Assembly (NCBI GenBank): GCA_963771275.1
Contig: CAVYSW010000009.1
Coordinates: forward strand, 192,001 to 256,000
DNA: 64,000 nt
Origin: an uncultured Gemmatimonadales bacterium
GTDB taxonomy: Bacteria; Gemmatimonadota; Gemmatimonadetes; Gemmatimonadales; GWC2-71-9
Direction: 5' to 3'
Part shown: piece by piece, positions 2,475 to 50,101 of the stretch
How positions within the stretch are numbered: position 1 is the stretch's first letter
Layout of the letters: each line of letters starts with the position of its first letter
The notes under the pieces: generated by a model
Database searches by the model: none
Told to the model about the DNA's origin: nothing
What the model saw: the letters and a program-made list of their open reading frames with translations, nothing else
Program-made: the position numbers and the translations under genes

Positions 2475-2571
2475 AATGTTCAATGTTCAATGTTCAATGT
2501 TCAATGTCCAATGTCCAAGGAGTCGAGCAGGCGGTCCATCACTGCCCGACAGCCTTGGTCATGGGACATTC
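2475..2571. repeat. Heptamer-arm palindrome, CAATGTY family, copy 1
   Basis: aatgtt (caatgtt)3 (caatgtc)2 caag, a 34-nt hairpin insert, then cttg gtcatgg gacattc. Confidence 0.85.
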
Positions 2572-2593
2572 ATCCCCGGAGACTGGACCTGGA

Positions 2594-3496
2594 TCAGTCG
2601 TGCTTCACCGCCGCTCCCCTGGTTCCCAGATAGATCGCTCCCAGCGCGAGCAGCGCCCCCGCCAGATCGCTCGCACGGGTCGGCCGGTGAAACAGCAGCA
2701 CATCCCACACGAACGCGAGCGATGGCTGCAGCAGCAGCACGAGACCCGCCCGGCCGGCCTCGACGTGCGGCAGGCCGTGGGAGATCAGCAGCCACGCCAC
2801 CACCTGCGCGGTCACCCCGTAGCCCAGGAGCAGCGCGCCGGTGCGTGCGTCGGGGATCGCGAAGGTCGCCCCTTCCAACCCCACGCTCGCGGCGAGCAGC
2901 GCCGTCGTGACGAAGCAGATCGTCATGAGGTTGGGAATCGGCTCGAGCCGGCCCGCGCGCGCCTGGCTGGCGCGGAGCGCCAGGAGGTACGACCCGTACG
3001 ACACCGCGGTGAGCAGCCCCAGCACCACACCCCACCGATAGCCCGCCGGCAGCGCCCTCCAGTCCACGCCCACCAGCAGAAACAGCCCCACCAACGCGAG
3101 CGGGATCCCGACCACGAGCCGCCAACTCGGGCGCTCCTTGAGAATCAGGATGCCGAAGGCCGCCAGCATGAACACCTGGAAGTTGGCGAGGATCGTGGCG
3201 AGCCCCGGACCGACGAGGTGGATGCTGCGGTGCCAGAAGATGAGATCGAACGTGAAGGCCAGTCCCGCCGCCGCCGCGAACCCGAACGCCCGGCCCCCGA
3301 CCCAGAGGCGCTCGCGCCGCGCCGTGGCCAGCGCGAGCAGCACGATCCCGCCCACCAGCATGCGGTAGAACCCCGCCGCCGTGGGCCCGATGGTGGCCAG
3401 CTTCACGAACACGGGCGCGACGCTCAGGAGCACCGCACCCGCCGCGACCTGCCACAGGGCCAAAGTCGGGCGGCGCCGGTCGGGGGATGCAATCAC
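2594..3496 (-). CDS. DMT/EamA family transporter
   Basis: About 10 TM helices in two EamA-like halves (GLATILANFQ, LLLQP); GTG start inferred. Confidence 0.88.
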   Translation of the reverse strand: MIASPDRRRPTLALWQVAAGAVLLSVAPVFVKLATIGPTAAGFYRMLVGGIVLLALATARRERLWVGGRAFGFAAAAGLAFTFDLIFWHRSIHLVGPGLATILANFQVFMLAAFGILILKERPSWRLVVGIPLALVGLFLLVGVDWRALPAGYRWGVVLGLLTAVSYGSYLLALRASQARAGRLEPIPNLMTICFVTTALLAASVGLEGATFAIPDARTGALLLGYGVTAQVVAWLLISHGLPHVEAGRAGLVLLLQPSLAFVWDVLLFHRPTRASDLAGALLALGAIYLGTRGAAVKHD

Positions 3497-3553
3497 GGGC
3501 GGTGAGACCTCGCACCAGGACGGAGGGTATTGTACACGGGAGGTGCTTCCGCG

Positions 3554-4024
3554 ATGAAATCCGGGTGGCTCGTCGTTCCCCTCATGATGGCTGCGGGTGC
3601 GGCGTGCAGCGAGCCGCCGGCCGGTCCCGAGACACCGGCGTGCCTGCCGGGCGTGTTCCCACCGGCGGCGATCGCCGGCACGCTGGATTACGTGGCCTGG
3701 GCGGACAGCGGCACGCAGCTGCTCGAGGGGGTGCTGGCCATCGCGGCGCAGTCCAACCAGCACATCGCCGGCACGTGGACCATTCACTGGGCGGCCGGCG
3801 CGGACACCGCCAACGCCAACGACATCGGCCCGCAGCTCGGGACCGGCGACCTGATCGGCGTGGTGCAGGATACCACCGTGCTCGTCAACCTCACTCCCGA
3901 CTTCGCCGACAACAACGTCGGGCTGCTGGGCTGCGTCACGGCCGCGGGTTTTGCCGGCACGTGGAGCCACGTGGGGATCGCCGGTGAGATCGCCCACGGG
4001 CCGTTCACCGCCACCAGGCGGTAG
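3554..4024 (+). CDS. Hypothetical lipoprotein
   Basis: Signal peptide ending in lipobox-like AGAAC; codon usage typical of the genome. Confidence 0.7.
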   Translation: MKSGWLVVPLMMAAGAACSEPPAGPETPACLPGVFPPAAIAGTLDYVAWADSGTQLLEGVLAIAAQSNQHIAGTWTIHWAAGADTANANDIGPQLGTGDLIGVVQDTTVLVNLTPDFADNNVGLLGCVTAAGFAGTWSHVGIAGEIAHGPFTATRR

Positions 4025-4119
4025 ACCAGCTCGGCACCACCGCGCGACACGGCGCCCCAAGTCGGTGGCGCCCCCTCCCGTCGTTTCATAGATTTCGCCG
4101 GCATTCTCCCCATGCTCTC

Positions 4120-7350
<3,231 letters not shown>

Positions 7351-7427
7351 CGCGCCGGGGTCCCACCGCAACATCTTTCCCGGCCCGCGCGTAGCGTGGC
7401 TGACGCCTTTTTCCCTCGGAGCTCCTC

Positions 7428-9965
7428 ATGCGACGTATCAATCGTCTGCTCGCGCTGCTCGCGGCCGGCTTGGTTGCCGGCGCCTGCGCGACGGCCCACA
7501 CCCAGGCCCCGTCCCCGACGCCGCAGCGGGCCCCGACCCCCACGCCACAGCAGGGGCAGGCCGGTCCGCAGGGCGGTCCGGCCAACGGCCGCGCGGCGCC
7601 CCAGCGCCCGCAGGACCGGAAGCCCAAGCCCTACAAGGAAGTGATCACCGCGGAGGCCAAGACCGACTCCGGACTGTTCATCGTCCATCGGGTGGCCGAG
7701 AAGCTCTACTACGAGATCCCGACGGCGGAGCTCGGCAAGGAGATGCTGCTGGTCACGCGGGTCGCCAAGACGCTCACGGGCATCGGCTACGGTGGCGAGG
7801 AGGCCAACGAAGCCGTGCTGCGGTGGCAGCGGCAGGATCAGAAGATCCTGCTGCGCGTCGCGTCCTATGTGAACGTGGCCAGCGACTCGCTGCCGATCGC
7901 GACGGCCGTCCGCACGTCGAATTTCGAGCCGATCCTCCAGGCGTTCGACATCGAGGCGTTCAACGCCGACAGCTCGGCGGTCGTGATCGAGGTGACGCCG
8001 CTGTTCAGCAAGGACGTGCCCATGCTCGGGCTCCAGTCGTCGCGCCGCGAGCAATACAAGGTGCGCCGGCTCGACGAGAGCCGCAGCTATCTCGTGTCGG
8101 CCCACAGCTACCCTCGGAACATCGAGGTGCGGCACGTCCTCACGTACGACGCGAGCGCGGCACCCTCCGACCCGTCGACCGGCGCGATCTCGCTGGAGAT
8201 GAACCAGTCGATGATCCTGCTGCCCGAGCGGCCGCTCCGCCCGCGGCTGTACGACGAGCGCGTGGGGTACTTCGGGATCCGGCAGACCGACTACGGGCTC
8301 GACGTGCAGCGCGCCGAGCAGCGGCGCTACATCGCCCGCTGGCGGCTCGAGCCCACGGATACCGCCGCGTTCCGGCGGGGCGAGCTGGTCGAGCCGGTGA
8401 AGCCGATCGTCTACTACATCGATCCGGCGACCCCCGTCAAGTGGCGGCCGTACCTCAAGCAGGGCATCGAGGACTGGAACGTCGCCTTCGAGGCGGCGGG
8501 CTTCAAGCACGCAATCCGCGCGATGGATCCGCCGACGCCCGAGCAGGACCCAGAGTTCAGCCTCGAGGACGTGCGCTACTCGTCGATCCGCTACTTCGCG
8601 TCCGACATCCAGAACGCCTACGGGCCGCATGTGTCGGATCCGCGGACCGGCGAGATCCTCGAGAGCGACATCGGCTGGTATCACAACGTGATGAACCTCG
8701 TGCGGGACTGGTTCCTGATCCAGACCGCGGCGGCCAACCCGGCGGCGCGGCATATCAGCTTCGATGACAAGCTCATGGGCGAGCTGATTCGCTTCGTGTC
8801 CTCGCACGAGGTGGGCCACACGCTCGGCCTGCCGCACAACATGAAGGCGAGCGCCGCCTATCCGGTGGACTCGCTGCGGTCGGCGGCCTTCACGTGCAAG
8901 ATGAACACCGCGGCGAGCATCATGGACTATGCGCGGTTCAACTACGTCGCGCAGCCCGACGACAAGGGCGTCTGCTTCATGCCCGGGATCGGCGTCTACG
9001 ATCTCTATTCGATCCGGTGGGGCTACCGGCCGATTCTCGACGCCGACTCACCCGACGCCGAGCGGCCGACGCTCGATCGCTGGATCCGCGAGCACGAGGG
9101 CGACCCGATGTACATGTTCGGCGATGCCACCGGCATGGACCCGGCGTCGCAGACCGAGGCGCTCGGTGACGACGGCGTGAAGGCGAGCGAGTACGGCATC
9201 GCCAATCTCAAGCGGATCGTGCCCAACCTGATCGCATGGACCCACGAGCCGCTGACGGACTACAGCCAGCTCGAGGAGCTCTACGGCCAGGCGGTCGGCC
9301 AGTGGGCCCGCTACATGGGCCACGTGACGACCATCGTTGGCGGCATCAACGAGACCCGGAAGAGCGCCGACCAGGCGGGTCCGGTGTACCTGCCGGTGCC
9401 CGAGGCGCAGCAGCGGGCCGCCATGCGGTTCCTCCGCGCCCAGGCGTTCGCGACGCCTACGTGGATGCTGGACCGTGACATCCTCGATCGGATCGAGAAT
9501 CCGGCGGCCGTCGAGCGCATCCGGACGCGGCAGGTGAGCGTCCTGAACGGTCTGCTGTCGTTCGACCGGTTGCAGCGCTTGATCGAGTCCGAGGCGGCAA
9601 TCGGCGGCCGGGCGTACTCGCTGGGCGAGTTCATGGGGGATCTCCACGGAGCCATCTGGAGCGAGCTCACCGCCGGGAGCCCGATCGATGTCTTCCGGCG
9701 TAACCTCCAACGCGGTTACATCGACCGGATGCAGTACCTCATGACGCAGGAGCCACCGCCCATCCCGGCCCAGTTCCGGCAGTTCGTGCGGCGCACGGAG
9801 GTCAACGTCGCGCAGAGCGACATCCGGCCGTTCGCGCGCGGCGAGCTCGAGGGACTGAAGCGCGAGATCAGCGCGGCGCTGCCCAAGGTGTCGGACCGGG
9901 CGACGCAGCTGCACCTGCGCGACGCGCTGGTGCGGATTCAGGACATTCTCGAGCCCAAGAAGTAG
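7428..9965 (+). CDS. Zinc-dependent metalloprotease lipoprotein (EcxA/DUF4953-5117-5118 type)
   Basis: Lipobox AGAC; HEVGHTLGLPH zinc motif; SIMDY Met-turn; DPRTGEILE. Confidence 0.9.
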   Translation: MRRINRLLALLAAGLVAGACATAHTQAPSPTPQRAPTPTPQQGQAGPQGGPANGRAAPQRPQDRKPKPYKEVITAEAKTDSGLFIVHRVAEKLYYEIPTAELGKEMLLVTRVAKTLTGIGYGGEEANEAVLRWQRQDQKILLRVASYVNVASDSLPIATAVRTSNFEPILQAFDIEAFNADSSAVVIEVTPLFSKDVPMLGLQSSRREQYKVRRLDESRSYLVSAHSYPRNIEVRHVLTYDASAAPSDPSTGAISLEMNQSMILLPERPLRPRLYDERVGYFGIRQTDYGLDVQRAEQRRYIARWRLEPTDTAAFRRGELVEPVKPIVYYIDPATPVKWRPYLKQGIEDWNVAFEAAGFKHAIRAMDPPTPEQDPEFSLEDVRYSSIRYFASDIQNAYGPHVSDPRTGEILESDIGWYHNVMNLVRDWFLIQTAAANPAARHISFDDKLMGELIRFVSSHEVGHTLGLPHNMKASAAYPVDSLRSAAFTCKMNTAASIMDYARFNYVAQPDDKGVCFMPGIGVYDLYSIRWGYRPILDADSPDAERPTLDRWIREHEGDPMYMFGDATGMDPASQTEALGDDGVKASEYGIANLKRIVPNLIAWTHEPLTDYSQLEELYGQAVGQWARYMGHVTTIVGGINETRKSADQAGPVYLPVPEAQQRAAMRFLRAQAFATPTWMLDRDILDRIENPAAVERIRTRQVSVLNGLLSFDRLQRLIESEAAIGGRAYSLGEFMGDLHGAIWSELTAGSPIDVFRRNLQRGYIDRMQYLMTQEPPPIPAQFRQFVRRTEVNVAQSDIRPFARGELEGLKREISAALPKVSDRATQLHLRDALVRIQDILEPKK

Positions 9966-10005
9966 GCCGACGCGCGCGCCGGCGCGCGGGTGAACGGACG
10001 GAGGG

Positions 10006-19382: not shown

Positions 19383-20562
19383 GCGCTCGGCGGCGCGCGC
19401 GATCGCGCCCTTCCTGCTGGCGCTCGGCGGCGCGGCGCCGCTCACCGCCCAACAGGGGGTCGGTGGCTACGCGCTCAACGTGTTCCTCGGTGCCGGCGAC
19501 GGCCCGTTCAGTGCGGCCGGCGTGCAGGATTTCCAGCGGCTGCGCCTGATGCTCAAGCCGGCGCGCGGCGCCGTATCGCTCGATCTCGCCTACGAACAGC
19601 TCCTCACCGTCGCCACGACGACCGGCCTGCGGGCGTTCGCCACGTCGCTCGGCCAACCCGCCGGCAGCGGCGACTGGCTGCCGCTCCAAGGAACGATCGC
19701 CGCGGGGGCGCATGCGACGTGGCGCCACCGCGTGGACCGGCTCGCCGTCACCGTCGCGCGACCGCTCGGCGAACTGGCCCTCGGGCGGCAACCCATGTCC
19801 TGGGCCACGACCCTGTTCCTCACCCCCGCCGATCCGTTCGCGCCGTTCGACCCGGCCGACCCGTTCCGCGAGTACCGCGCCGGCGTCGACGCGGCGCGCG
19901 TGCGCGTGTTCCCCAGTGCCATGAGCGAGCTGGAAGCGGTCGTCCGGCCGGCCACGTTCGACTCGGTCACCACGGTAACCGCCCTGGCGCGCGGCAAGAT
20001 CGCCGTGGGCCGGATCGAGCTGGCCGGATGGGGCGGCGTGCTGCACGACCGGGCCGCGGGCGCGCTGGGCGTCACGATCAGGGTGGCGGGGGCGGTGCTC
20101 CGCTCCGAAGCCGCCCTGCGCCGTGCGGGTGATACGACGGTGGTCCGGCTGGCCGTCGGCGCCGATCGGACGTTCGAGATCGCGGGCCGCACGCTGTACG
20201 TGCTGGCCGAATACCAGCGGGACGGCTTCGGCGCGGCCGGCGCCGGTGGGCTCCCAACGGTGCTCGGCTCGGCGCCCTACCGGCGCGGCGAGCTGCAGGT
20301 ACTGGGCCGCCACGAAATCATGGCGCAGGCGACCTATCAACTGCATCCGCTCGTCCGCCTCGAGACGCTGAGCGTGTGGAACGCGGGGGACGGCAGCGCG
20401 CTGCTGGCGCCGGCCGTCGGGTATGACGCCCTGGCGAATCTCGGGTTCCGCCTGGGGGCCTTCGTGGGGATCGGCGCCCGACGGACGGCGGCCGGGTTCC
20501 CGGGCTCGGAGTACGGGGCGGTGCCGGTCGCGGGGTACCTCTCGGGGAGCTTCTTCTTCTAG
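19354..20562 (+). CDS. Hypothetical exported/outer-membrane beta-barrel protein
   Basis: Signal peptide, GRQPMSW motif, C-terminal FF; last gene of the ABC operon. Confidence 0.7.
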   Translation: MRSRPTSARRRSAARAIAPFLLALGGAAPLTAQQGVGGYALNVFLGAGDGPFSAAGVQDFQRLRLMLKPARGAVSLDLAYEQLLTVATTTGLRAFATSLGQPAGSGDWLPLQGTIAAGAHATWRHRVDRLAVTVARPLGELALGRQPMSWATTLFLTPADPFAPFDPADPFREYRAGVDAARVRVFPSAMSELEAVVRPATFDSVTTVTALARGKIAVGRIELAGWGGVLHDRAAGALGVTIRVAGAVLRSEAALRRAGDTTVVRLAVGADRTFEIAGRTLYVLAEYQRDGFGAAGAGGLPTVLGSAPYRRGELQVLGRHEIMAQATYQLHPLVRLETLSVWNAGDGSALLAPAVGYDALANLGFRLGAFVGIGARRTAAGFPGSEYGAVPVAGYLSGSFFF

Positions 20563-20654
20563 AATGTCCGACAGAATGTCCAATGTCCAATGTCCAATAT
20601 CCAATGCTCAAGTCCTTGGACATTGGATATTGAGCATTGGACATCGGACATTCT
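20561..20654. repeat. Heptamer-arm palindrome, CAATGTY family, copy 2
   Basis: agaatgtccga...caatgtc caatgtc caatatc caatgct CAAG-tc-CTTG gacattg gatattg agcattg gacatcg gacattct; fills the gap between convergent stops. Confidence 0.92.
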
Positions 20655-22114
20655 CACAGGTAGGGTGAGGCGAGCCGGGCGATCCCGTTCCGGAGACGCC
20701 GCGGCAGCGACATGCCGTCCAGCTCCGCCGCCGTGACGAGGCGACCGCTCGCGCGCTTCTCGTCCATGAAGTGCCCCAGCTGCTCGCCCAGCGCCGGGTC
20801 GTAGCACTCCACGTTGAACTCGAAGTTGAGCCGCAGGCTGCGCGGGTCCCAGTTGGCGGACCCGATCAGGATCCACGCGCCGTCCACGAGCATCAGCTTG
20901 GTGTGGTCGAACGGCGGAGGCGTGTAGTACACGGTGCAGGCGTTCTTCACGAACTGCCAGAGCAGCGCCTGCGACGCCCAGTCGGCGAGCGGGTGGTTGT
21001 TCTGCGCGGGCAGCAGGATCTCGACCCGCACGCCGCGGAGCGCCGCGACGTTGAGCATGGCGGTGAGGGTCGCGTCCGGCAGGAAGTAGGGGGTCATGAT
21101 GCGGATCGACTCCGCCGCCACGCCGAGCGCGCCCTGGATCACCCAGCGCAGCTTCTCGAAGTCCTCGTCGGGACCGTCGGCGATGCCGCGCGCGGCGACC
21201 GTTCCCGCCCGGGCCGGCTCGGGCAACCAGTCAGGGCCGGCGAGCAGTTCCCCCGTGGTGAATACCCAGTCCTCGGCAAACGCCTCCATCAGGTGCTGCA
21301 CGACCGGGCCATCCACCTGAAAGTGGAGATCCTGCACGGGGTGCCTGGCGTGCGCTGTCACGAGATGATCCTGCCGCAGGTTCATGCCGCCCGTGAACCC
21401 CACCGCCCCGTCGACGACCAGGAGCTTGCGGTGATTGCGCAGGTTCCAGAACGGCGCGCGCCACGGCGCGATCGTCGGCATGAAGCGCGCGACCCGGATG
21501 CCGCGTTGCTGGAGCAGGGGCACGACGGGGGGCCATGAGAAGCGGGAACCCAGGCCGTCGATCAGCACGCGGGTCTGCACGCCGCGGCGCGTTGCCCGCT
21601 CCAGCGCGTCCACGAACGCCCTGCCCGCGGGATCATTGTCGAAGATGAAGGTCGAGAGCGCGATCGAGCGCCGCGCATCGTCGATGGCGGCGATCATGGC
21701 CGGGTAGGCGGCATCGCCGTTCACCAGCGGGGTCACCGCGTTGCCCGCCGTGAGCGGCCGGCGACACACGCGATCCACCAGGCGGGCAAGCGTGCCCAGG
21801 TGCCGGTGCTCGTCACCGAGCACGTCCCCGAGGGCCGCGGCAGCGCCACCGAGCGCGGCGTAGGCGCCCGACAGCCGCCGGGTCTCGCCCCGCAGCATCG
21901 CCGCCCGCCGCCGTATTCGATTCACGCCGAGCAGCGCGTACAGCACCGCGCCAACGACCGGGACGAGCCAGATGAGCCCGACCCACGAGACCGCGGCTCG
22001 AGTGTCCCGCTTGTAGAGAATCGCGTGCCCCGACGCGACGATCGCGAGGAGCAGGGTGAGGGCGGCGGCGACCCAGTAGCCCAGCTCGGAGAGGAATGCG
22101 ACGAGCCGATCCAT
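20654..22114 (-). CDS. cls: Cardiolipin synthase
   Basis: N-terminal PLDc_N TM pair; two HKD motifs (NHRKLLVVDG, HTKLMLVDG), GSANWD. Confidence 0.93.
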   Translation of the reverse strand: MDRLVAFLSELGYWVAAALTLLLAIVASGHAILYKRDTRAAVSWVGLIWLVPVVGAVLYALLGVNRIRRRAAMLRGETRRLSGAYAALGGAAAALGDVLGDEHRHLGTLARLVDRVCRRPLTAGNAVTPLVNGDAAYPAMIAAIDDARRSIALSTFIFDNDPAGRAFVDALERATRRGVQTRVLIDGLGSRFSWPPVVPLLQQRGIRVARFMPTIAPWRAPFWNLRNHRKLLVVDGAVGFTGGMNLRQDHLVTAHARHPVQDLHFQVDGPVVQHLMEAFAEDWVFTTGELLAGPDWLPEPARAGTVAARGIADGPDEDFEKLRWVIQGALGVAAESIRIMTPYFLPDATLTAMLNVAALRGVRVEILLPAQNNHPLADWASQALLWQFVKNACTVYYTPPPFDHTKLMLVDGAWILIGSANWDPRSLRLNFEFNVECYDPALGEQLGHFMDEKRASGRLVTAAELDGMSLPRRLRNGIARLASPYL

Positions 22115-37291: not shown

Positions 37292-37360
37292 CGAATGTCC
37301 GATGATCAATGCCCAATATCCAAGTACTTGGACATTGGCCATTGATCATTGGACCTTTCG
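37292..37360. repeat. Heptamer-arm palindrome, CAATGTY family, copy 3
   Basis: cgaatgtc cgatgat caatgcc caatatc CAAG-ta-CTTG gacattg gccattg atcattg gacctttcg. Confidence 0.9.
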
Positions 37361-38062
37361 TCACCGTCCCAACCCCACCGTCACGCCGAGATGGTAGAGG
37401 ATCAGGTTGGTCTGACTCTCGATCGGCGTGTACGTCACGGTGTTCCCCGTGATGGCGATGCTACCCTCGCGCAGGTACCGGGCGCGCCCGTTGTACAGGT
37501 AGCGGGCACCGAGGTCCAGCGACACCGGGAACCGCCCGTGCGAGACTCGGAACCGCACTCCGCCACCCGCCGAGGTCGCGAACGTGAAGTCGTCGAAATT
37601 GGTGGTGTTCGCGAACGGCGCGACGTTCCCGCTCCCCTCGACGGACGACGACGTGACGAAGTACGAGAAGCCCAGCTCACCGTATCCATACACCTGGGCG
37701 GCACCCGTGCCGAGCGTGACCTGGGGACCGAGCTGGAACCCCGCGATCTGATTGTTGGTGGTCACGTCCACGTCCACCAGCGGGACGAGCTGATACCGCC
37801 GCGTCTCGCTTCCATAGATCAGGTAGCTCGCGTCCGCGCGAAGGCCCAGAACGCCGCCCGGCGTCCAGACGGCGTACCCAGCCAGTCCGCCGCCGAGGCC
37901 GACGTAGTTGGCGAACTCGCCCGTGGGCTGTGCCAGCAGCACCGCGAGGCCGAGGTGCGTGTTCGTCGTTCGCACGGGCCTCAAACCCTGCGCCTGCGCC
38001 GCGCTCGCCGTCACGGCCAACACCAGCACCGTTCCCGCGATGACTTTCAGTCCGGTCCTCAT
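37361..38062 (-). CDS. Outer membrane beta-barrel protein (OmpA/Opacity-like)
   Basis: Signal peptide (AAQAQ), alternating aromatic strands, C-terminal YHLGVTVG; AGGAGG RBS. Confidence 0.75.
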   Translation of the reverse strand: MRTGLKVIAGTVLVLAVTASAAQAQGLRPVRTTNTHLGLAVLLAQPTGEFANYVGLGGGLAGYAVWTPGGVLGLRADASYLIYGSETRRYQLVPLVDVDVTTNNQIAGFQLGPQVTLGTGAAQVYGYGELGFSYFVTSSSVEGSGNVAPFANTTNFDDFTFATSAGGGVRFRVSHGRFPVSLDLGARYLYNGRARYLREGSIAITGNTVTYTPIESQTNLILYHLGVTVGLGR

Positions 38063-38944: not shown

Positions 38945-39048
38945 GAATGCCCTAATGACTAATGTCCTGTGATCGGCGTCCAATGGGCAGGCCTGCGATC
39001 TCCTGCCCTTGCTAATTGGTAATTGGACATTGGGGATTGGACATTGGA
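38945..39048. repeat. Heptamer-arm palindrome, CAATGTY family, copy 4 (degenerate left arm)
   Basis: gaatgcc ctaatga ctaatgt...caat gggcagg-loop-cctgccc ttg ctaattg gtaattg gacattg gggattg gacattg. Confidence 0.8.
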
Positions 39049-40172: not shown

Positions 40173-40173
40173 T

Positions 40174-40216
40174 CGAATGCTCAATGTTCAATGCTCAATG
40201 TTCAATGTTCAATACT
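40174..40216. repeat. Left heptamer arm of copy 5, upstream of the four-helix-bundle gene
   Basis: cgaatgct caatgtt caatgct caatgtt caatgtt caatact. Confidence 0.92.
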
Positions 40217-40327: not shown

Positions 40328-40699
40328 ATGGCTCCGCGTCGGTACGATCTGGAGGATCGCCTGCTCGCGTTTGCGATCTCCGCGTCTCGCCTCACGACTG
40401 CCTTTCCGCCCAGCATGGTGGGCCGGCACGCCGGGCTACAGCTGATTCGATCTGCGACATCTCCGGCCGCCAACTATGCGGAAGCCGTGGCGGCGGAGTC
40501 CCGCCGCGATTTCGTACACAAGCTCCGCATCTGTCTCAAGGAGCTGCGCGAGGTGCGCATCTGGCTCCGGTTCGTTGTGGGAGTCGAACTCGCTCCGAGC
40601 GCGGCTGTCGTGGGAGCGGGTCGCGAATGCGATGAGCTGATCGCGATCCTCGCCGCCTCCATCAGGACGGCGAAAGGCAGAGCGTCAAGCGATCAATGA
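40328..40699 (+). CDS. Four helix bundle protein (23S rRNA-IVP / Avd-like superfamily)
   Basis: DLEDRLLAF...QLIRSATSPAANYAEA..AESRRDFVHKLRICLKELRE..WL...ECDELIAIL..SIRTAK. Confidence 0.9.
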   Translation: MAPRRYDLEDRLLAFAISASRLTTAFPPSMVGRHAGLQLIRSATSPAANYAEAVAAESRRDFVHKLRICLKELREVRIWLRFVVGVELAPSAAVVGAGRECDELIAILAASIRTAKGRASSDQ

Positions 40700-40792
40700 T
40701 CAGTGTTCAAATGATCAGTGTTCAATAGATCAGTGTTCAAGTCCCCTCTAGACCTTGGATATTGGATATTGAACATTGATCATTGAACATTG
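40692..40792. repeat. Downstream part of copy 5: 15-nt tandem repeat, CAAG-12nt-CTTG centre, right heptamer arm
   Basis: (atgatcagtgttcaa)x2 tagatcagtgttcaa g tcccctctagac cttg gatattg gatattg aacattg atcattg aacattg. Confidence 0.92.
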
Positions 40793-40797
40793 CTCCC

Positions 40798-42012: not shown

Positions 42013-42181
42013 GACCGCGGGCCCGGTCACTTTCGGGTCTCGCGCGCCCCGCCGCCCGTCGCAACGCGCGGGCGTCTTCGAGCATCACATAGGAGATGAA
42101 CCCTGAATCTTCCGGTCCCCCACCCCGTACGGCATGTTTGGACCGCTGGTTAGCCACCCTGCCCCACACCGGAGTCGCGTC

Positions 42182-45100
42182 ATGAGCCGAAGCCGACTGT
42201 TCGCCCTCCCGTTCGTCCTCTGCCTCGTCGCCGGGCCGGCCGCCGCGCAGGTCGACGCCCGCATGTTCCGCTATCCCGACGTCTCGGCCACCCAGATCGC
42301 GTTCGTCTACGCCGGCGACATCTGGGTCGTCCCCAAGACCGGCGGTGTCGCAAACCGGCTGAGCTCCCCGCGCGGCGAGGAGATGTTCCCGCGCTTCTCA
42401 CCCGACGGGTCCAGGATCGCCTTCAGCGCCAACTACGACGGCAACCTCGACGTCTACGTCGTGCCCACGATGGGCGGCGAGCCCGCCCGGGTTACCTACC
42501 ACCCGATGGGCGACCGTCTGGTGGACTGGCATCCCGACGGCAAGCGCGTGCTGTTCGCGTCGGGCCGCGAGAGCGGCCGCCAGCGCTACAGCCAGTTCTA
42601 CCTCGCGAGCGCGGCGGGCGGGCTGCCCGAGAAGCTGCCGATCCCGTATGGCGAGTTCGGAGCGTTCTCCGACGATGGCCGCCTGTTCGCCTACATGCCC
42701 CTGTCGCAGGACTTCCGCACCTGGAAGCGCTACCGCGGCGGCTGGGCGGGCGACATCTGGCTGTTCGATCTGAAGGACTCGTCGGCGACCAACATCGCGC
42801 AGAACGACGCCGACGACGGCCAGCCGATGTGGCACGGGAACACGCTGTACTTCCTCTCCGACCGGGGCCCCAACCAGCGCCACAACATCTGGGCCTACGA
42901 CCGCACCACCAAGGCGGTGCGCCAGGTCACGCAGTTCAAGGACTTCGACGTCGCGTTCCCAGCCATCGGGCCCAACGACATCGTGTTCCAGGCGGGGAGC
43001 GGTCTGTACCTGCTCGACCTCGCCACGGAGAAGGTCGCGGAGGTCACCGTGCGGGTCGTGACCGACGAGATCACGCTCAAGCCGCGGAGCGAGCAGATCG
43101 GCCAGTTGATCCGCTGGGCGGACGTCTCGCCCACCGGGAAGCGGGCGGTGTTCAACGCGCGGAACGAGATCCTGACGGTCCCGGCCGAAAACGGGCCGAT
43201 CCTGAACCTCACCCGCACCGCCGGCACCGCCGAGCGGTACCCGGCCTGGTCGCCCGACGGCAAGACGGTGGCGTTCTGGAGCGATCGCTCCGGCGAGTAC
43301 GAGCTGTACGTGCGGCCCGCCGACGGATCGGGTGACGAGAAGAAGCTCACGTCGCTCGGGGCCGGGTACCGGTATCCGCCCTCGTGGTCCCCGGACGGCA
43401 AGAAGATCGCCTTCGCCGACCAGCTGGCGGTGTTCCGGATCTATGACCTCGACACGGACAAGGTGACCGAGATCGACCGCAGCAAGGTCTGGCTGTCCCA
43501 CGGCGGGCTCGAGAACCTGGGGTTCGACTGGTCGTCCGACAGTCGCTGGCTGACCTATGCCCGCCCCGACGAGAACCGCGGCGGCGCCGCGATCTTCCTG
43601 TACGACACGAAGGACGGCTCGCTGCATCAGGCGACCAGCGGGTACTTCACCGACATCCAGCCGGCGTTCGACCCCGACGGGAAGTACCTCTTCTACCTCT
43701 CGAACCGGAACTTCGAGCCGGTCTACGGCGACTTCGACAACAGCTGGACGTACCCCAACGCGACGATGATCGTCGCCGTCCCGCTCCGTGCCGACGTGCC
43801 GTCGCCGCTGGCGCCGAAGAACGACGTGGAGGCGGCGGCGGACTCGGCGAAGAAGCCGCCGGAGGGACCGAAGGGGCAGGCCAAGGCCGATTCCGCCAAG
43901 GCGGTGACGATCGACCTTGCCGGCTTCGAGGACCGGGCGGTGATTCTGCCCCCCAAGGGCGGCAACTACGCGAACCTGCGCGCCGTGCAGGGCAAGCTGC
44001 TCTACATCCGCGGCGCCCGCACCGGCTCGGGCGAGACCAAGAGCCCGCTGATGTACTTCGATCTCGCCGAGCGCGAGGAGAAGACGGTGCTGGACGACGC
44101 CGGCCGGTTCGTGGTGACCCACGACGGCAAGAAAGTGCTCGTCACGGCCACCCGTCGCTGGGCGATCGTGGAGGTGAAGCCGGCTCAGAAGTTCGACAAG
44201 CCGCTCCGCACCACCGAGATGGAGACGGTCGTCGACCCGCGGGCCGAGTGGCGCCAGATGTTCGCCGACGCCTATCGGTTCGAGCGCGATTTCTTCTACG
44301 ATCCGAACATGCACGGCGTGGACTGGACGGGACTGCGCGACCGCTACGCCAAGCTGATCGACGACGCGGTCACCCGCTGGGACGTCAACGCCGTGCTCGG
44401 CGACTTCATCGCCGAGCTCAACTCGTCGCACACGTACAACGGCGGCGGGGAGGTGGAGAGCGCGCCGCGCCGCGCGGTCGGCATGCTCGGCGTGGACTGG
44501 GCGCTCGAGAACGGCGCCTACCGCGTCAAGCACATCGCCGCCGGCGGGCCGTGGGACGCGGACGCCCGCTCGCCGCTCAGGGAGCCGGGGGTCGACGTCA
44601 AGGAAGGTGACTACGTCCTGGCCGTGAATGGCGTACCGCTCGACGTTGCGAAGGACCCGTGGGCCGCGTTCCAGGGTCTGGTCAACGCGCCGGTGATGCT
44701 CACTGTGAGCGGCACACCCAGCATGACGGGATCCCGACAGGTGCTGGTCAAGCCGCTCGCCGACGACACCGAGCTCAGGTTCCGCGAGTGGATCGAGGCG
44801 CGCCGCCAGCGCGTCGACCAGGCGACCGGCGGCAAGGTGGGCTACATCTACGTCCAGAGCACCGGCGTGGATGCCCAGAACGAGCTCGTCAAACAGTTCA
44901 TGGCCCAGTGGCGCAAGGACGGGCTGATCATCGACGAGCGGTGGAACAGCGGCGGCCAGATTCCCGACCGGTTCATCGAGCTGCTGAACCGCCCGATGCT
45001 GAGCTACTGGGCGGTGCGCAACGGCCAGGACTGGCAGTGGCCCCCGGTGGCCCATCGCGGTCCCAAGGTCATGCTGATCAACGGCTGGAGCGGATCCGGT

Positions 45101-45436
45101 GGTGACGCCTTCCCGTTCTACTTCCGCCAGGCGAAGGTCGGACCGCTCATCGGCATGCGTACGTGGGGCGGCCTGATCGGCATCAGCGGCGCGCCGGCTC
45201 TGGCGGACGGCGGGTCGATTACCGTGCCGACGTTCCGGATGTACGACGTCACGGGCAAGTGGTTCCCCGAGGGACACGGCGTCGAGCCGGACATCCCGGT
45301 CGTGGACGACCCGGCCCAGCTGGTGCGCGGGACGGATCCCCAGCTCGAGCGGGCAATCCAGGAGGTGCAGCGCCTGATCCGCGAGCACCCGCCGACGCCG
45401 CCCAAGCGACCGGCGTACGAGAAGCGGATACCATAA
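42182..45436 (+). CDS. Tricorn protease homolog (S41 family, PD40 repeats + PDZ)
   Basis: RYPDVS..IAFVYAGDIW, WKRYRGG, ELNSSH, DERWNSGG, SGSGGD, GMRTWGG, EGHGVEPD. Confidence 0.95.
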   Translation: MSRSRLFALPFVLCLVAGPAAAQVDARMFRYPDVSATQIAFVYAGDIWVVPKTGGVANRLSSPRGEEMFPRFSPDGSRIAFSANYDGNLDVYVVPTMGGEPARVTYHPMGDRLVDWHPDGKRVLFASGRESGRQRYSQFYLASAAGGLPEKLPIPYGEFGAFSDDGRLFAYMPLSQDFRTWKRYRGGWAGDIWLFDLKDSSATNIAQNDADDGQPMWHGNTLYFLSDRGPNQRHNIWAYDRTTKAVRQVTQFKDFDVAFPAIGPNDIVFQAGSGLYLLDLATEKVAEVTVRVVTDEITLKPRSEQIGQLIRWADVSPTGKRAVFNARNEILTVPAENGPILNLTRTAGTAERYPAWSPDGKTVAFWSDRSGEYELYVRPADGSGDEKKLTSLGAGYRYPPSWSPDGKKIAFADQLAVFRIYDLDTDKVTEIDRSKVWLSHGGLENLGFDWSSDSRWLTYARPDENRGGAAIFLYDTKDGSLHQATSGYFTDIQPAFDPDGKYLFYLSNRNFEPVYGDFDNSWTYPNATMIVAVPLRADVPSPLAPKNDVEAAADSAKKPPEGPKGQAKADSAKAVTIDLAGFEDRAVILPPKGGNYANLRAVQGKLLYIRGARTGSGETKSPLMYFDLAEREEKTVLDDAGRFVVTHDGKKVLVTATRRWAIVEVKPAQKFDKPLRTTEMETVVDPRAEWRQMFADAYRFERDFFYDPNMHGVDWTGLRDRYAKLIDDAVTRWDVNAVLGDFIAELNSSHTYNGGGEVESAPRRAVGMLGVDWALENGAYRVKHIAAGGPWDADARSPLREPGVDVKEGDYVLAVNGVPLDVAKDPWAAFQGLVNAPVMLTVSGTPSMTGSRQVLVKPLADDTELRFREWIEARRQRVDQATGGKVGYIYVQSTGVDAQNELVKQFMAQWRKDGLIIDERWNSGGQIPDRFIELLNRPMLSYWAVRNGQDWQWPPVAHRGPKVMLINGWSGSGGDAFPFYFRQAKVGPLIGMRTWGGLIGISGAPALADGGSITVPTFRMYDVTGKWFPEGHGVEPDIPVVDDPAQLVRGTDPQLERAIQEVQRLIREHPPTPPKRPAYEKRIP

Positions 45437-45440
45437 GAGA

Positions 45441-45504
45441 ACGTATGGCGTGCAGCGTGCAGCGTACGGCAGTTACGCTGCACGCTGCACGCGATACGCT
45501 GGAC
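45441..45504. repeat. Heptamer-arm palindrome, GCGTGCA family
   Basis: acgtatg gcgtgca gcgtgca gcgtacg gcagt tacgctg cacgctg cacgcga tacgctg; between convergent genes. Confidence 0.85.
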
Positions 45505-45515
45505 GACACCAGCTC

Positions 45516-46628
45516 CTAGGATCTTCCTGCCGGACTCCCCGTATGTCCCGCGACGCCGAACGGCAGCATGCGGAAGAACAGCGCAAACCGGAGTCCGTCC
45601 TCCGCGTTCCATTCCAGCGTGAACCCGGGCCGGAACGCGCGCGGGCCGAGGACGCCCGGGTACACGCTGAGGGTGGCGCGGTCGAGCTTGTCGGGCGTCA
45701 CGCTGAGCGAGGCGAGCAGCGAGTTGTTGCGGTCGAGGAAGATGGCGGCGGCCGGGCCCGTGGTCGCCGTGACCTGACGCGCCTGCGTGCTGTCCTGCGT
45801 TTCGAACAGCTCGGTCGCCGCGATGCCTCCGGCGAGGGTCAGGCGGTCGCGCCAGCTCAGCTTGTAGGACAACCCCACGAGCCCCTGCGTCCCGTACGTC
45901 GCGAAGATGCCGTAGCGCGACCGCCCGGGATGGATCCGGAACACCGTCCGGTATCCCGTGTTCTGCAGCGTGTGCGACACGGGGTCATAGGCGGGCTGGT
46001 TGGGCCAATACGCCAATCCGAGATGGCGGCCGAGAAACCGCGACGCCCGATCCGAGCTGAACAGCACGAGCGCGATCGGGTTGAAGACGTAGCAGTCGGC
46101 GATCGGATCCACGTTGGCGCCGCGGTAGTCGCCGTTCTCCACCGCCTCGTTGAGTATCGCACCCGCCCAGAAACTCAACAGGGCCATCACCTGCGGGTGC
46201 GGCACGCCATAGTAGCGGTACCACTCGAGGTCGTGACGGTACACCAGCCCCTCGCCAAACACGTGCCCGATGTAGTTGGGCACCCACTGCGCATTGTCCC
46301 GCTCGAAACTGGGGAGGACCTCCGACGTGAGGAACCGCCCCCAGCCGTAGTCACCGATCGCGCGGAACGGGTGTACCAGGTTGTCCAGCACGTTGTCGAA
46401 TCCGATGCCGTAGGCCACGGCGAAGGGATCGTCGCCCCGGTTGTCGATCTGAAACGTGTAGTAAGCGCTGTTGAGAAGCGCCGACAGCGGGTTCACCACG
46501 GACTGGGAACCGTAGGCCAGCCCGTAGTAGTAGTAGTTGGCGGGCTCCGTCTGGGCCCGAGCTGGCCCGGACGTCGCCAATGCCAGGATCGCGATTCGCA
46601 TCGCGCGCACCGCACGCCGTGATGACAT
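45516..46628 (-). CDS. Hypothetical exported/outer-membrane protein
   Basis: Signal-like N-terminus (alternative start 46601), WVPNYIGH, NEAVEN, DPIAD motifs; aromatic-rich. Confidence 0.7.
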   Translation of the reverse strand: MSSRRAVRAMRIAILALATSGPARAQTEPANYYYYGLAYGSQSVVNPLSALLNSAYYTFQIDNRGDDPFAVAYGIGFDNVLDNLVHPFRAIGDYGWGRFLTSEVLPSFERDNAQWVPNYIGHVFGEGLVYRHDLEWYRYYGVPHPQVMALLSFWAGAILNEAVENGDYRGANVDPIADCYVFNPIALVLFSSDRASRFLGRHLGLAYWPNQPAYDPVSHTLQNTGYRTVFRIHPGRSRYGIFATYGTQGLVGLSYKLSWRDRLTLAGGIAATELFETQDSTQARQVTATTGPAAAIFLDRNNSLLASLSVTPDKLDRATLSVYPGVLGPRAFRPGFTLEWNAEDGLRFALFFRMLPFGVAGHTGSPAGRS

Positions 46629-46647
46629 GACCCCTCAGTGAGGGGAG

Positions 46648-46743
46648 GAATGTATGCAATGTCCAATGCCCAAGGCGCAATGTCCAATGTCCTAGGCCCG
46701 TCACTTGGATATTGGACATTGGACGTTGAACATTGGACATTGA
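46648..46743. repeat. Heptamer-arm palindrome, CAATGTY family, copy 6
   Basis: caatgtc caatgcc caaggcg caatgtc caatgtc ctag-gcccgtca-cttg gatattg gacattg gacgttg aacattg gacattg. Confidence 0.92.
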
Positions 46744-46746
46744 ATC

Positions 46747-47631
46747 ATGCTCGCGCTCCCCACCCGCCCCCTCGGTCCCGACATCCCCGCCGTGAGCGGC
46801 ATTGGCCTCGGCGGCATGGCCCTGTCGCTTGCCGACCGGCCGCCGGCCTCCCAGGCGATCCGGGTGATCCACGCGGCCCTCGATGCCGGCGTGACCCTGA
46901 TCGATACCGCCGACGTGTACTGCCTCGACGACCGCGACCTGGGCCACAACGAGCGGCTCATCGCCCGGGCGCTCGGCACGTGGAGCGGCGCGCGCGATCG
47001 GGTAATGGTGGCCACCAAGGGCGGCCTCACCCGACCGGCCGGCCGCTGGGAGCCCAACGGACACCCCGACCACCTCAAGGGGGCGTGCGACCGCTCGCTC
47101 AAGTCCCTCGGCGTGGAGCGGATCGACCTGTACCAGCTGCACCGTCCCGATCCCGCCGTCCCGCTCGCGGACAGCGTCGGTGCGCTCGCGGCGCTGCGCG
47201 CGGAGGGCAAGATCCGCTGGATCGGTCTCTCCAACGCAAGCGTCGCGGAGATCGAGGAGGCGCGCCGGATCGCGCCGATCCAGAGCGTGCAGAACCGGCT
47301 GAATCCGTTCTTCCGCGAGGCGCTCGAGACCGGCGTGGTCGCCTACTGCGTCCGGCACGGGATCGGCTTCCTCGCCTACAGCCCGACGGGCGGCGGTCGG
47401 CTCAACAAGACGCTGCCGTTCCATGCCGTCGCCGCCGCCCTCGCCGAGCGCCACGGGGCGACGGCGCACGCCGTGGTGCTCGCCTGGGTGCTGGCGCAGG
47501 GATCGACGGTGATCCCCATCCCGAGCGCCCGCACCGTCGAGCACGCGGTCGACGCGATCCGGTCGCTGGCCCTGGCGCTCACCGATGAAGAGCTGGGGGC
47601 CATCGACCGGGCGGAGTTCTCGCGGGCCTAA
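46747..47631 (+). CDS. Aldo/keto reductase
   Basis: IGLGGM, IDTADVY, ATKGG, IDLYQLHRPD, GKIRWIGLSN. Confidence 0.93.
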   Translation: MLALPTRPLGPDIPAVSGIGLGGMALSLADRPPASQAIRVIHAALDAGVTLIDTADVYCLDDRDLGHNERLIARALGTWSGARDRVMVATKGGLTRPAGRWEPNGHPDHLKGACDRSLKSLGVERIDLYQLHRPDPAVPLADSVGALAALRAEGKIRWIGLSNASVAEIEEARRIAPIQSVQNRLNPFFREALETGVVAYCVRHGIGFLAYSPTGGGRLNKTLPFHAVAAALAERHGATAHAVVLAWVLAQGSTVIPIPSARTVEHAVDAIRSLALALTDEELGAIDRAEFSRA

Positions 47632-47633
47632 AG

Positions 47634-47724
47634 CGAATGTCCAATGTTCAATGTTCAATACCCAATGTCCAGGGACTTGGACATTGAGCATTGGACATTG
47701 AGCATTGGACATTGGATATTGGAC
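47634..47724. repeat. Heptamer-arm palindrome, CAATGTY family, copy 7
   Basis: cgaatgtc caatgtt caatgtt caatacc caatgtc cagg-ga-cttg gacattg agcattg gacattg agcattg gacattg gatattg. Confidence 0.93.
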
Positions 47725-47751
47725 CGTCCGCCGCTCTCAGGAGCCCACGCC

Positions 47752-48369
47752 ATGTCCATCCGCACCGCGCTCATCGTGGTCGACCTACAGCCGGATTTCA
47801 TGCCGGGGGGCGCGCTCCCGGTCGCGGAAGGCCACCGGGTGGTCGCACCGATCCGCGACCTCCTGCTGAGCGGCCGGTTCGACGTGGTCGTCGCCACGCA
47901 GGACTGGCACCCCCGGCACCATGCCTCATTCGCCAGCGCGCACGCCGGGAAGCGCCCGTTCGACGTCGTGACGCTGCACGATCACGAGCAGGTGCTCTGG
48001 CCGGACCACTGCATCCAGGGCACACCGGGCGCCGCGCTCCACGAAGGCATCGCGCTGGAATGGGTCGATGCCATCATCCGGAAGGGCTCCGACCCGACCG
48101 TCGATTCCTACAGCGGGTTCCGCAACAACTGGGACGCCTTGGGTGCGCGTCCCCCCACCGGGCTCGGCGGCTACCTCAAGGAGCGCGGCATCACGCACAT
48201 CCTGACGTGCGGGCTCGCGCGGGACTACTGCGTGAAGTGGACGGCCGAAGACGCCGCGGCGGCGGGATTCCGGACCCGGCTGCTGTGGGAGCTGACCCGC
48301 CCGGTGGACCCGGCATCCGACGGGCGCGTGCGGGAGGAGCTGGGAAGGGCGGGAGTCGAGATCGTGTAG
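47752..48369 (+). CDS. pncA: Nicotinamidase/pyrazinamidase
   Basis: VVDLQPDFMPGGAL, TQDWHP, WPDHC, RKG...DSYSGF, GLARDYCV. Confidence 0.94.
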   Translation: MSIRTALIVVDLQPDFMPGGALPVAEGHRVVAPIRDLLLSGRFDVVVATQDWHPRHHASFASAHAGKRPFDVVTLHDHEQVLWPDHCIQGTPGAALHEGIALEWVDAIIRKGSDPTVDSYSGFRNNWDALGARPPTGLGGYLKERGITHILTCGLARDYCVKWTAEDAAAAGFRTRLLWELTRPVDPASDGRVREELGRAGVEIV

Positions 48370-48442
48370 CGTGTCGCGTGTAGCGTATAGCGTGCCTACT
48401 GCCACCTCTCGCCGCCTTTGCCGCCCCTGCCGCTACTGCCGC
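48363..48442. repeat. Composite repeat: GCGTGYA 7-mer arm abutting a 9-mer (YCTGCCGC-type) arm
   Basis: cgtgta gcgtgtc gcgtgta gcgtata gcgtgcc, then tactgccac ctctcgccgc ctttgccgc ccctgccgc tactgccgc; between convergent stops. Confidence 0.7.
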
Positions 48443-50010
48443 TGCTCCCCATGCAGCAGCTGCCGCACTTCCTCCTGCGCCCCGACGGCCAGGTCGATCC
48501 GCTCGCCGATCTCCTTGGCCCGCGCGATGTGCTGGGTGATGTCGCCGACCGAGCCGACGCCTGCGTGCAGCCGCAACAACCCGACCCGGATGTTCTCCAG
48601 TGCGGCGACGGCCTCCGTGAGACGGGCGCCAGTATCGCCCCCGGCCCGCAGGACCTCGGCACGTTCCTCCAACAGCTGAATCACCCCCCGCACGCCGCGC
48701 AGCTGGGCGCGGGTCATGTCCGGCAGCGCGTCGAACGCTTCGGTGGCCGCACGGCCGAGCGCCAGCTCGGTCGCCTCGCGGCCCGGCAGCGCGGCCCGCT
48801 TCGGCCGCTTGATGCCGACGCCCGCCGCCTTGAAGAAGAGCCGCCCGAGCCGTCCCGCCCACAGCCGGTGCCACAGCCCGGTGACCCACCGCATGAGCCG
48901 ACGCTCGCCGATCGCCCCTGATTCCTCCTCCTGGAGCCGCGCCTCGGCGAGCAGCGCCGCGCGGATGTCGTCGAATACGTAGCCCTCGCGGAGCAGCCGC
49001 CGCGCGGCGCCGATCAACTGGACCACGATGGCGAGGAACACGATGTTCACCTCGCCACCTTGGGTTCCCATACGCACCACCGCGGTGCCGGCCAGAATCA
49101 CCGCCGTCGAGATCTCGGCATTGCGCATGAAACGGCGGAGCAGCGGCGGGGCGCGCAGCTCCTGCCCCCGCAGCTCACCCGCCAGGGTCGCCAGCTCGTC
49201 GCCCGACTGCACCCGACCGCGCGGCTCGCGCGCCAGGCACTTCTCGATCAGCTGACCCAGTTGCTTCGGCACTTCGGGCCGCAGGGAGCAGACCTCCGGC
49301 ACCGGGCGCGTCAGCTGCTCGTTGATGATCGCGGGGAGGGAACGGCCCTCGTACGGCGCGCGCCCGGTGAGCGCGAAGAACGCGGTCGCGCTCAGCGAGT
49401 AGAGGTCGCTCCGCCCGTCCACCGGCTCGCCGCAGGCCTGCTCGGGACTCATGTAGCGCGCGGTGCCGATGATCTCGCCCGACTGCGCCGCGGAGGGCCC
49501 GGTCGTGACCTGCGCGATTCCGAAATCCGTCACCAGCACGCGATCGGTGTCGCGCTCGATCATGATGTTGTCGGGCTTCACGTCGCGGTGGACGATGCCG
49601 CGCTGATGGGCGTAGGCGAGCGCCCACGCGGCTTCCTGCACGACCTTCGTCACGAACTTGGGCGACAGCGGCCCGAGCCGGTCCACGCGCTGGCGCAGCG
49701 TCTCGCCGTCCACATAGCCCATCACGAAGAACACCAGATCGCCGTGCGCCTCGACGAGGTGAATCGGAACGATATTGGGATGGGACAACCCCGCGGCGGT
49801 CCGCGCCTCGCGCAGAAACCGGTCCCGCACCCCGGCGTCCTGCGCCAGCTCGCGGGGCAGCAGCTTGATGGCAACCAGCCGATCCAGCGCCACGTCGTGC
49901 GCGAGCAGCACGATCCCCATGCCGCCACGTCCCAGCTCCCGCTCGATGGAGTAGCGACCGGCGAGGACTTCCTGGAGAGACAGGAACTCGGGGGAGATGG
50001 CGTCCGGCAT
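48433..50010 (-). CDS. Ser/Thr protein kinase with TM segment and helical C-terminus
   Basis: ELGRGGMG, VAIK, HRDVKPDN, DFG, GTARYMSPEQ. Confidence 0.93.
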   Translation of the reverse strand: MPDAISPEFLSLQEVLAGRYSIERELGRGGMGIVLLAHDVALDRLVAIKLLPRELAQDAGVRDRFLREARTAAGLSHPNIVPIHLVEAHGDLVFFVMGYVDGETLRQRVDRLGPLSPKFVTKVVQEAAWALAYAHQRGIVHRDVKPDNIMIERDTDRVLVTDFGIAQVTTGPSAAQSGEIIGTARYMSPEQACGEPVDGRSDLYSLSATAFFALTGRAPYEGRSLPAIINEQLTRPVPEVCSLRPEVPKQLGQLIEKCLAREPRGRVQSGDELATLAGELRGQELRAPPLLRRFMRNAEISTAVILAGTAVVRMGTQGGEVNIVFLAIVVQLIGAARRLLREGYVFDDIRAALLAEARLQEEESGAIGERRLMRWVTGLWHRLWAGRLGRLFFKAAGVGIKRPKRAALPGREATELALGRAATEAFDALPDMTRAQLRGVRGVIQLLEERAEVLRAGGDTGARLTEAVAALENIRVGLLRLHAGVGSVGDITQHIARAKEIGERIDLAVGAQEEVRQLLHGEQRQ

Positions 50011-50012
50011 GG

Positions 50013-50101
50013 TTCAATGTTCAATGTTCAATGTTCAATATCCAAGTGCTTGGACATTGAGCATTGAACATTGAGCATTGAACATTGAGCATTGAACATT
50101 C
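50013..50101. repeat. Heptamer-arm palindrome, CAATGTY family, copy 8
   Basis: (caatgtt)3 caatatc CAAG-tg-CTTG gacattg (agcattg aacattg)2 agcattg aacattc. Confidence 0.95.

Follow-up and report, generated by a model that had tools for sequence, protein, structure and literature searches.

Heptamer palindromes that frame four-helix-bundle protein genes and host coding DNA in a Gemmatimonadales genome

Short intergenic arrays of tandem 7-mers are found in cyanobacteria as short tandemly repeated repetitive (STRR) sequences, and palindromes beside stop codons are characteristic of the repetitive extragenic palindromic (REP) sequences and bacterial interspersed mosaic elements (BIMEs), which are enriched between convergent genes and of which a family flanks its cognate gene for a REP-associated tyrosine transposase (RAYT, or TnpA-REP). 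For Xanthomonas, the main text of one description gives 70-75 convergent inverted heptamer pairs per genome and conservation of 83% of the sites between two xanthomonads (PMC4692102). The window analysed here is a whole stretch of 64,000 nucleotides (G000:C9:192001-256000) from the genome of an uncultured Gemmatimonadales bacterium (G000; 3.86 Mb, 11 contigs, 96.7% complete). It contains eight palindromes with arms of tandem heptamers, which were recognised in an original prediction from the sequence and are here termed family A, and a gene for a four-helix-bundle protein that is framed by arms of this family. Families B to E are the other heptamer clusters of the same genome.

The framed gene had been overlooked in the original prediction, in which the arms at 40174 and 40692 were counted as a single palindrome copy. 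The open reading frame (ORF) that they frame, 40328-40699, matches TIGR02436 (E 1e-20) and PF05635, and the predicted model of its product (predicted local distance difference test score, pLDDT, 92.9) matches 2RLD, 2GSC and Avd (4DWL) with template modelling (TM) scores of 0.74-0.82 by query, the score for Avd being 0.74. From 2RLD and 2GSC, which have five chains each, and from Avd, we infer that the window protein may assemble as a homopentamer and bind nucleic acid; for Avd, a pentamer, binding to an RNA stem-loop has been described (10.1101/2023.10.23.563531). The cassette has the order left arm, gene, left arm, right arm. In the predicted fold of the whole cassette the outer left arm, 40175-40213, pairs with the right arm, 40755-40792; taken alone, the arm at 40175 gives no fold signal (z +1.5 against doublet shuffles). 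Four TIGR02436 genes in G000 exceed the cut-off, and each has arms of a different family around it (A, B, C or D). Moreover, family A is enriched within 30 kb of its gene (6/9 sites versus 25/147 elsewhere, p 0.002), as is family C (5/6 versus 33/150, p 0.003). A fifth, divergent four-helix-bundle gene of this genome (G000:C7:9293-9562) lies below the cut-off and has no arms.

Is this association found outside G000? Homologous loci with full flanks number 105 and come from many phyla; among them are the window locus itself and three pairs of duplicates. A 7- or 8-mer array within about 270 bp is present at 90 of the 105, on both sides at 57, versus 53 of 983 control windows. In 88 of 111 distinct loci the two sides of the gene carry arms in inverted orientation; 63 of the 111 show the layout left arm, gene, right arm, seven the layout of the window, and ten no array. 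Seven proteins in the clade of the window protein (Shimodaira-Hasegawa-like approximate likelihood ratio test, SH-aLRT, 87) all have A-type arms at different loci, in a quick tree of which many forks are open; alignment A2 excludes six of the 80 homologue rows, on account of stops, and three more. Among 300 other genomes of the order, 14 contain a match to copy 8. A close homologue bearing A-type arms is present in six of these 14, and five of the six also have copies away from the gene. No TIGR02436 gene was found in G010, G011, G012, G014 and G028. Three cassettes of the window type (L107, L109 and L121, in G270, G191 and G215) directly adjoin a sequence that we take to be 5S rRNA. Cassettes L110 and L111 adjoin tRNA-like genes, and at L108 (G207:C78) the downstream palindrome stands in tandem triplicate.

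Throughout G000, period-7 arrays number 180, versus 10, 46, 25, 97, 4 and 3 for periods 5, 6, 8, 9, 10 and 11. Profiles clustered from these arrays gave 279 arms, which fall into five families: A with 48, B with 79, C and D with 63 each, and E with 26. The four families other than A, of which family D also occurs in the window, and the pairs of mixed family had been missed in the original prediction. A chance origin of the arms is excluded; contig C10 has 53 arms and its Markov-5 copy has two, with profiles trained on G000 itself. Eight of the 32 genomic sites of family A, and five of the 13 A-A pairs called by the profile scan, fall in the window. Among 107 arm pairs at most 120 bp apart, 89 have the order left then right: 68 of the same family and 21 of mixed family, which we call hybrids. 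The others comprise seven left-left pairs, ten right-right pairs and a single right-left pair, which is an overlap artefact. Because 'left' was defined from the same-family pairs, the mixed pairs (21 versus 1) constitute an independent test of polarity. Neighbouring sites belong to the same family in 51 of 102 cases, versus 32 expected.

The palindromes vary among closely related strains. Contigs of runs X1 and X2, from two studies, extend across copies 3, 4, 5b, 6, 7 and 8 with an identity of about 99%; one of these two runs may be the source sample itself, and runs X3-X5 yielded short pieces only. Copy 3 has one additional base at its centre in X2, and copy 5b has four additional bases in its centre in X1 (40748). 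In X1, copy 7 has gained one unit (+7 at 47710) and copy 8 seven bases (50042), and in X2 copy 8 has lost 14 bases (50054), which supports the earlier proposal that arms gain and lose whole units. Single-base differences at 37325 and 37356 may be assembly errors, and the same probably holds for two extra bases in the tail of the aldolase gene beside copy 8 (50127 and 50130), which are absent from X2 and would not represent variation of the element.

At greater distance, the sites persist and the families change. Neither of the outcomes that would have told against the original prediction was observed: orthologous sites of congeners do not conserve the copies, and the other runs contain them. 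At the window junctions, family A arrays are absent from congeners G001-G006; the junctions hold 8-mer palindromes of other types, single arms or a REP-like hairpin, or they hold nothing. This is seen for copy 6 (other repeat types or none), copy 7 (other repeat types) and copy 8 (in five congeners, palindromes of another type or a REP-like hairpin). The hairpin of L090 (G004:C123), at the kinase/aldolase junction where G000 has copy 8, is of the classical REP-like kind. By eye, several of the congener units match the arms of the congeners' own four-helix-bundle genes, and G001 retains the cassette after mltG, with related arms. A wider comparison was made with G004, of which 1.63 of about 3.4 Mb was covered (768 orthologues, median amino-acid identity 71%). 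With a family-blind detector and gaps of at least 40 bp, G004 has arrays at 9/16 of the conserved junctions that are occupied in G000 versus 7/126 of the unoccupied ones (p 2e-6); without the gap filter, the figures are 9/18 and 15/426. Inspected by eye, six of the nine shared junctions carry another family, two the same family and one a related 9-mer; one compared junction is empty in G004, and another has different arms around a similar central hairpin. Unit lengths in G004 are 7, 8, 9 and 10 bases.

What, then, lies between the arms? Most centres are unique. In ksgA (C10:798129-798972), family E arms occupy two loops, in frame, with the conserved DALK segment between them, and in rarA (C4:6451-7819) family C arms, also in frame, flank the GDARR helix. 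The rarA gene of G000 has a one-base frameshift directly after the first arm, probably an assembly error. Of 25 rarA loci, 20 could be parsed, and the five others keep the ancestral loops; in seven of the 20, the two loops that flank the GDARR helix both bear arms, reverse-complementary to each other, and one locus has a single arm. In the seven armed genomes, each arm matches its own partner best, above the arms of any other genome (permutation p 5e-5). In G000 and G016 the rarA arms match those of the adjacent four-helix-bundle cassette, and the units differ between the two genomes. Whole palindromes were also found in frame in alaS-, ftsK- and pdxA-like genes, named from their sequence. Conserved host coding DNA is thus enclosed by arms in both ksgA and rarA, and in rarA the two arms of a pair change type together from genome to genome; the centre is therefore passive and not a fixed cleavage point. 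The original prediction had regarded it as an insertion or cleavage point; these coding centres speak against that, and neither a target duplication nor an armed transposase gene was found in G000.

How might such pairs have arisen? The polarity, the pairing of gene and family, the local clustering, the re-use of junctions with a change of family, the host DNA as centre and the change in unit number are matters of observation. We propose that the cassette is the source from which arms spread over its neighbourhood, and that they are rewritten as pairs, the four-helix-bundle protein probably assisting; this reading of the sequences seems to us about evenly poised between right and wrong. Arms would be copied from the cassette or from neighbours onto nearby gene junctions and older arm sites. 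When a new unit type entered one arm in this way, a hybrid pair would be formed. Hybrids would be intermediates, in which template switching within the hairpin would then convert the partner arm, and slippage would alter the number of units. Homogenisation of inverted-repeat arms by template switching has been described (PMC5941160). The protein would promote the rewriting by binding arm RNA or single-stranded DNA, and we guess that strand breakage and arm copying would fall to host repair enzymes. A role of the protein is suggested by its near-constant framing, by the local clustering and by the likeness to Avd.

Several observations weigh against this reading. First, the protein is not matched neatly to the arms. 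Family E has no framed gene in G000 at 96.7% completeness, and the clustering of families B and D near their genes is not significant (2/3 and 1/2 sites). Genomes G082, G090, G309, G157 and G121 bear window-type palindromes without a close homologue, and of the 34 family matches in these five genomes, none of the 22 inspected has window-type arms (other arms or none). Similar proteins in G000, G016, G090 and G121 carry different units, so that the protein sequence does not fix the unit, and the protein is not known to have a catalytic role. Second, the evidence for pairwise rewriting is qualified by the arms themselves. Partner arms are not exact mirrors and their unit numbers are uncorrelated (17/68 equal); therefore, any pairwise correction must be slow or partial. 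The seven armed rarA genes fall in one clade of eight, which implies one acquisition, not seven, followed by coordinated change, and gradual drift of related units could produce part of the rarA pattern. Third, kin are not independent in the counts of flanking arrays, in the clade tree or in the rarA permutation. Finally, some centres are common to distant copies (85% over 53 nt), and the 60-bp element at C6:115754 has an empty orthologous site, which fits the insertion of a whole element.

These last two observations are also expected if the gene-less copies behave as transposable elements of the miniature inverted-repeat kind (MITEs) or REP sequences: they would derive from the cassette, be non-autonomous and insert as complete elements, often within a copy already present, and hybrids would be nested insertions trimmed by deletion. 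Such an origin, which we think unlikely, would also suit the predominance of the left arm, gene, right arm layout, the nested left-left-right and left-right-right arrangements, and the distinct outermost unit, which begins with G in 23/46 family A arms versus 5/187 inner units; one hybrid centre, moreover, matches a cassette end (13/13). The centres as a whole do not derive from the resident cassettes (z>3 in 1/40 cognate versus 1/108 other comparisons). A target duplication was looked for at 68 same-family elements and not found, the mean shared flank being 3.46 versus 3.41 in shuffled pairs, although the element ends are fuzzy, so that a duplication of 2-3 bp could be missed. No transposase gene with heptamer arms was found, none of the three Y1_Tnp-like genes in G000 being armed, and G000 has no RVT_1 (PF00078) match that would indicate a reverse transcriptase. 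A single insertion cannot place arms on either side of host coding DNA, and insertion of finished elements therefore cannot be the whole story. The Y1_Tnp-like gene at G000:C7:18267-18551 is flanked by direct REP-like repeats of its own, unrelated to the heptamers. No armed GxxExxY partner is listed beside the match at G000:C9:285384-285666, which is itself split into two pieces in different frames.

Could the arms do without the protein? Slippage, template switching and gene conversion might make and homogenise them, with the gene as a passenger in the hairpin loop, as in rRNA intervening sequences, and the arms might be retained as RNA hairpins through RNase III processing or 3′ protection. 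The placement of the elements agrees with this proposal. Against 3254 genes called in this analysis, 18 of 279 arms lie inside a gene; a stop is found no more than 12 bp from the element end in 74/109 cases and a start in 13/69; and convergent junctions are enriched (28/89 versus 187/1529) and divergent ones depleted (8/89 versus 375/1529). Insertion tolerance by itself could explain part of this placement. Arrays also occur in genomes without a close homologue, as noted above, and RNase III cuts the Coxiella intervening sequence at its heptamer stem (PMC4990558). Folding, however, gave no sense-strand stability bias (21/40), the 21 hybrids fold less well than same-family pairs (median -0.37 versus -0.54 kcal/mol per base), and in-frame copies in coding DNA are hard to reconcile with terminators. 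It also leaves unexplained why 90/105 of the gene family's loci are framed and why families cluster near their genes; we judge this explanation improbable.

It is very unlikely, in our judgement, that each pair is a recombination site, cut and rejoined at its centre in the manner of an integron attC, with hybrids marking inversions, deletions or cassette exchanges. The 21 hybrids do have the correct polarity, and in G001 a 5.5-kb block with a resistance-nodulation-division (RND) transporter separates the cassette from dinB (L086, G001:C98:1972-7529). In the comparison with the covered part of G004, synteny is broken at 6/8 hybrid junctions, a missing orthologue being counted as a break, yet this does not clearly exceed the value for same-family junctions (12/24, p 0.41) or for element-free ones (261/404). 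Two hybrids stand at syntenic junctions, and twin hybrids were seen on either side of tandem paralogues or of a conserved junction; that twin hybrids are inversion scars was not supported in the cases examined. There is no common centre sequence, and essential coding DNA can be the centre. An assembly artefact deserves practically no weight, despite the probable single-base errors in the aldolase tail and rarA; it is refuted for copies 3 to 8 by the spanning contigs of X1 and X2, and the same palindrome type recurs in the other genomes of the order.

To return to the window itself (Table 1), the original prediction was accurate as to the eight palindromes, their coordinates and their character as AT-rich islands (G+C fraction 0.33-0.51 versus 0.706 in the window), and all eight two-armed copies fold well (z = -3.1 to -10.1 against doublet shuffles). 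Its 2-nt loops (20561, 37292, 47634 and 50013), its centres of 8, 12 and 34 nt (46648, 40692 and 2475) and its hairpin centre (38945) were found as described, and its view of a dispersed, REP-like, lineage-specific element beside stop codons is supported. The inner motif CAAG-(N)-CTTG is not constant as had been claimed; it differs at 38945, 46648 and 47634 and is confined to one of the five families. Two further corrections concern the intergenic location. The left arm of copy 5b (at 40692) overlaps the four-helix-bundle gene and contains its stop codon, and in the assembly the fructose-bisphosphate aldolase ORF runs on through copy 8, an effect of the two extra bases in the tail of that gene (50109-50135). 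An Rfam search of the window gave two fluoride riboswitches (RF01734) and no rRNA match; the riboswitches, at 60060-60131 (+) and 61797-61865 (-), face each other around one gene. A GC-rich 9-mer tandem at 48396-48442 lies in the low-complexity tail of a Ser/Thr kinase and is lacking in the congeners.

Table 1. Heptamer elements of the window and the gene that they frame.
Feature	Position	Strand	Description
Copy 1	2475..2574		Left arm long, right arm decayed, 34-nt centre; situated between kinase start (2420, -) and EamA stop (2594, -)
Copy 2	20561..20653		Complete palindrome, 2-nt loop; occupies the whole gap separating convergent stop codons 20560-20562 and 20654-20656
Copy 3	37293..37359		Palindrome, 2-nt loop; ends at stop of - strand gene at 37361
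Copy 4	38945..39048		Degenerate arms, hairpin centre; immediately upstream of methyltransferase start (38932, -)
Outer left arm of gene cassette	40175..40213	+	2 nt past mltG stop
Four-helix-bundle gene	40328..40699	+	TIGR02436, PF05635 23S_rRNA_IVP; 123 aa; S23/Avd-like fold
Copy 5b	40693..40792		Inner left arm, 12-nt centre, right arm; ends 5 nt ahead of dinB start
Family D palindrome	45445..45502		Between convergent stops
Copy 6	46648..46742		8-nt centre; ends 4 nt ahead of aldo-keto reductase start
Copy 7	47635..47724		2-nt loop; 3 nt past aldo-keto reductase stop
Family D single left arm	48363..48394	+	Overlaps stop of isochorismatase-family gene
Copy 8	50013..50101		2-nt loop; between aldolase end and kinase start
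Family D single arm	61917-61940		At gene end

Why bacterial genomes have an excess of heptamers and what the '23S rRNA intervening-sequence protein' does have been separate open questions, and G000 ties them together. Going beyond the local spreading and pairwise rewriting of arms proposed above, we suggest tentatively, and with more doubt than belief, that TIGR02436 proteins are the acting part of a widespread system free of transposase and reverse transcriptase, which would install inverted arm pairs, mostly in cis, and then overwrite them with a new unit type. What is framed in this way would be the gene of the protein itself, a terminator, a stretch of 60-110 bases within a host gene, or nothing. 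If this is true, rRNA intervening sequences, STRR-type arrays and in-frame low-complexity protein loops would be products of one mechanism. The in-frame arms around conserved coding DNA mean that the process rewrites protein loops of housekeeping genes. Four paralogues with four cognate families, hybrids formed in nature, and orthologous sites at which one family has replaced another offer ready substrates and controls for assays of binding and conversion.

How do these elements compare with described systems? Like the REP sequences of the RAYT system, the G000 palindromes lie at gene ends and are enriched between convergent genes; they differ in their tandem 7-mer arms, in the lack of the conserved tetranucleotide end tag borne by the single short hairpin of REP sequences, and in that the framed gene encodes a four-helix bundle and not an HUH transposase. 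With MITEs they share terminal inverted repeats; a target duplication and a transposon-derived interior were not found in the G000 elements. The palindromic elements of Rickettsia are in-frame insertions in proteins, and the G000 palindromes in variable loops of the alaS-, ftsK- and pdxA-like products resemble them, except that in G000 the two arms can occupy separate loops with conserved host sequence between them. The Avd protein of diversity-generating retroelements (DGRs) has the same fold as the window protein (4DWL, TM 0.74), but G000 has neither a reverse transcriptase match nor a pair of template and variable repeats. The intervening sequences (IVSs) of the 23S rRNA genes of Coxiella and Leptospira place the same protein family (S23p, PF05635) in the loop of a terminal inverted repeat, with tandem heptamers upstream of the ORF that vary in number between strains (PMC4990558). 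In contrast, the window cassette stands between protein genes, mltG and dinB, and not in a 23S rRNA gene; copies without the gene are scattered over the whole genome, which has five families side by side, and host coding DNA is framed as well. A gene of this protein family has also been noted in cas loci (PMC3936711). The heptameric arrays of Xanthomonas and Nostoc (PMC4692102) and those of Beggiatoaceae (PMC4679880) are likewise short intergenic 7-mers of variable length, with a mechanism that the consulted descriptions leave unexplained. Hybrids and coding centres are absent from the consulted passages, and a term search found no mention of the four-helix-bundle protein family in the main texts of either paper. 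Unlike the xanthomonads, the congener of G000 at 71% amino-acid identity mostly carries other families at the shared sites. In literature searches that left supplements and most subscription journals outside their reach, we found no report joining the TIGR02436/PF05635 protein family to dispersed heptamer palindromes, nor one of family turnover or of arms around host coding DNA. The elements of G000 thus fail defining features of REP/RAYT, MITE, IVS and DGR systems; as dispersed tandem 7-mers, mostly intergenic and variable in unit number, they agree with the description of STRR sequences and heptamer arrays, and it is into this descriptive class that they fit.

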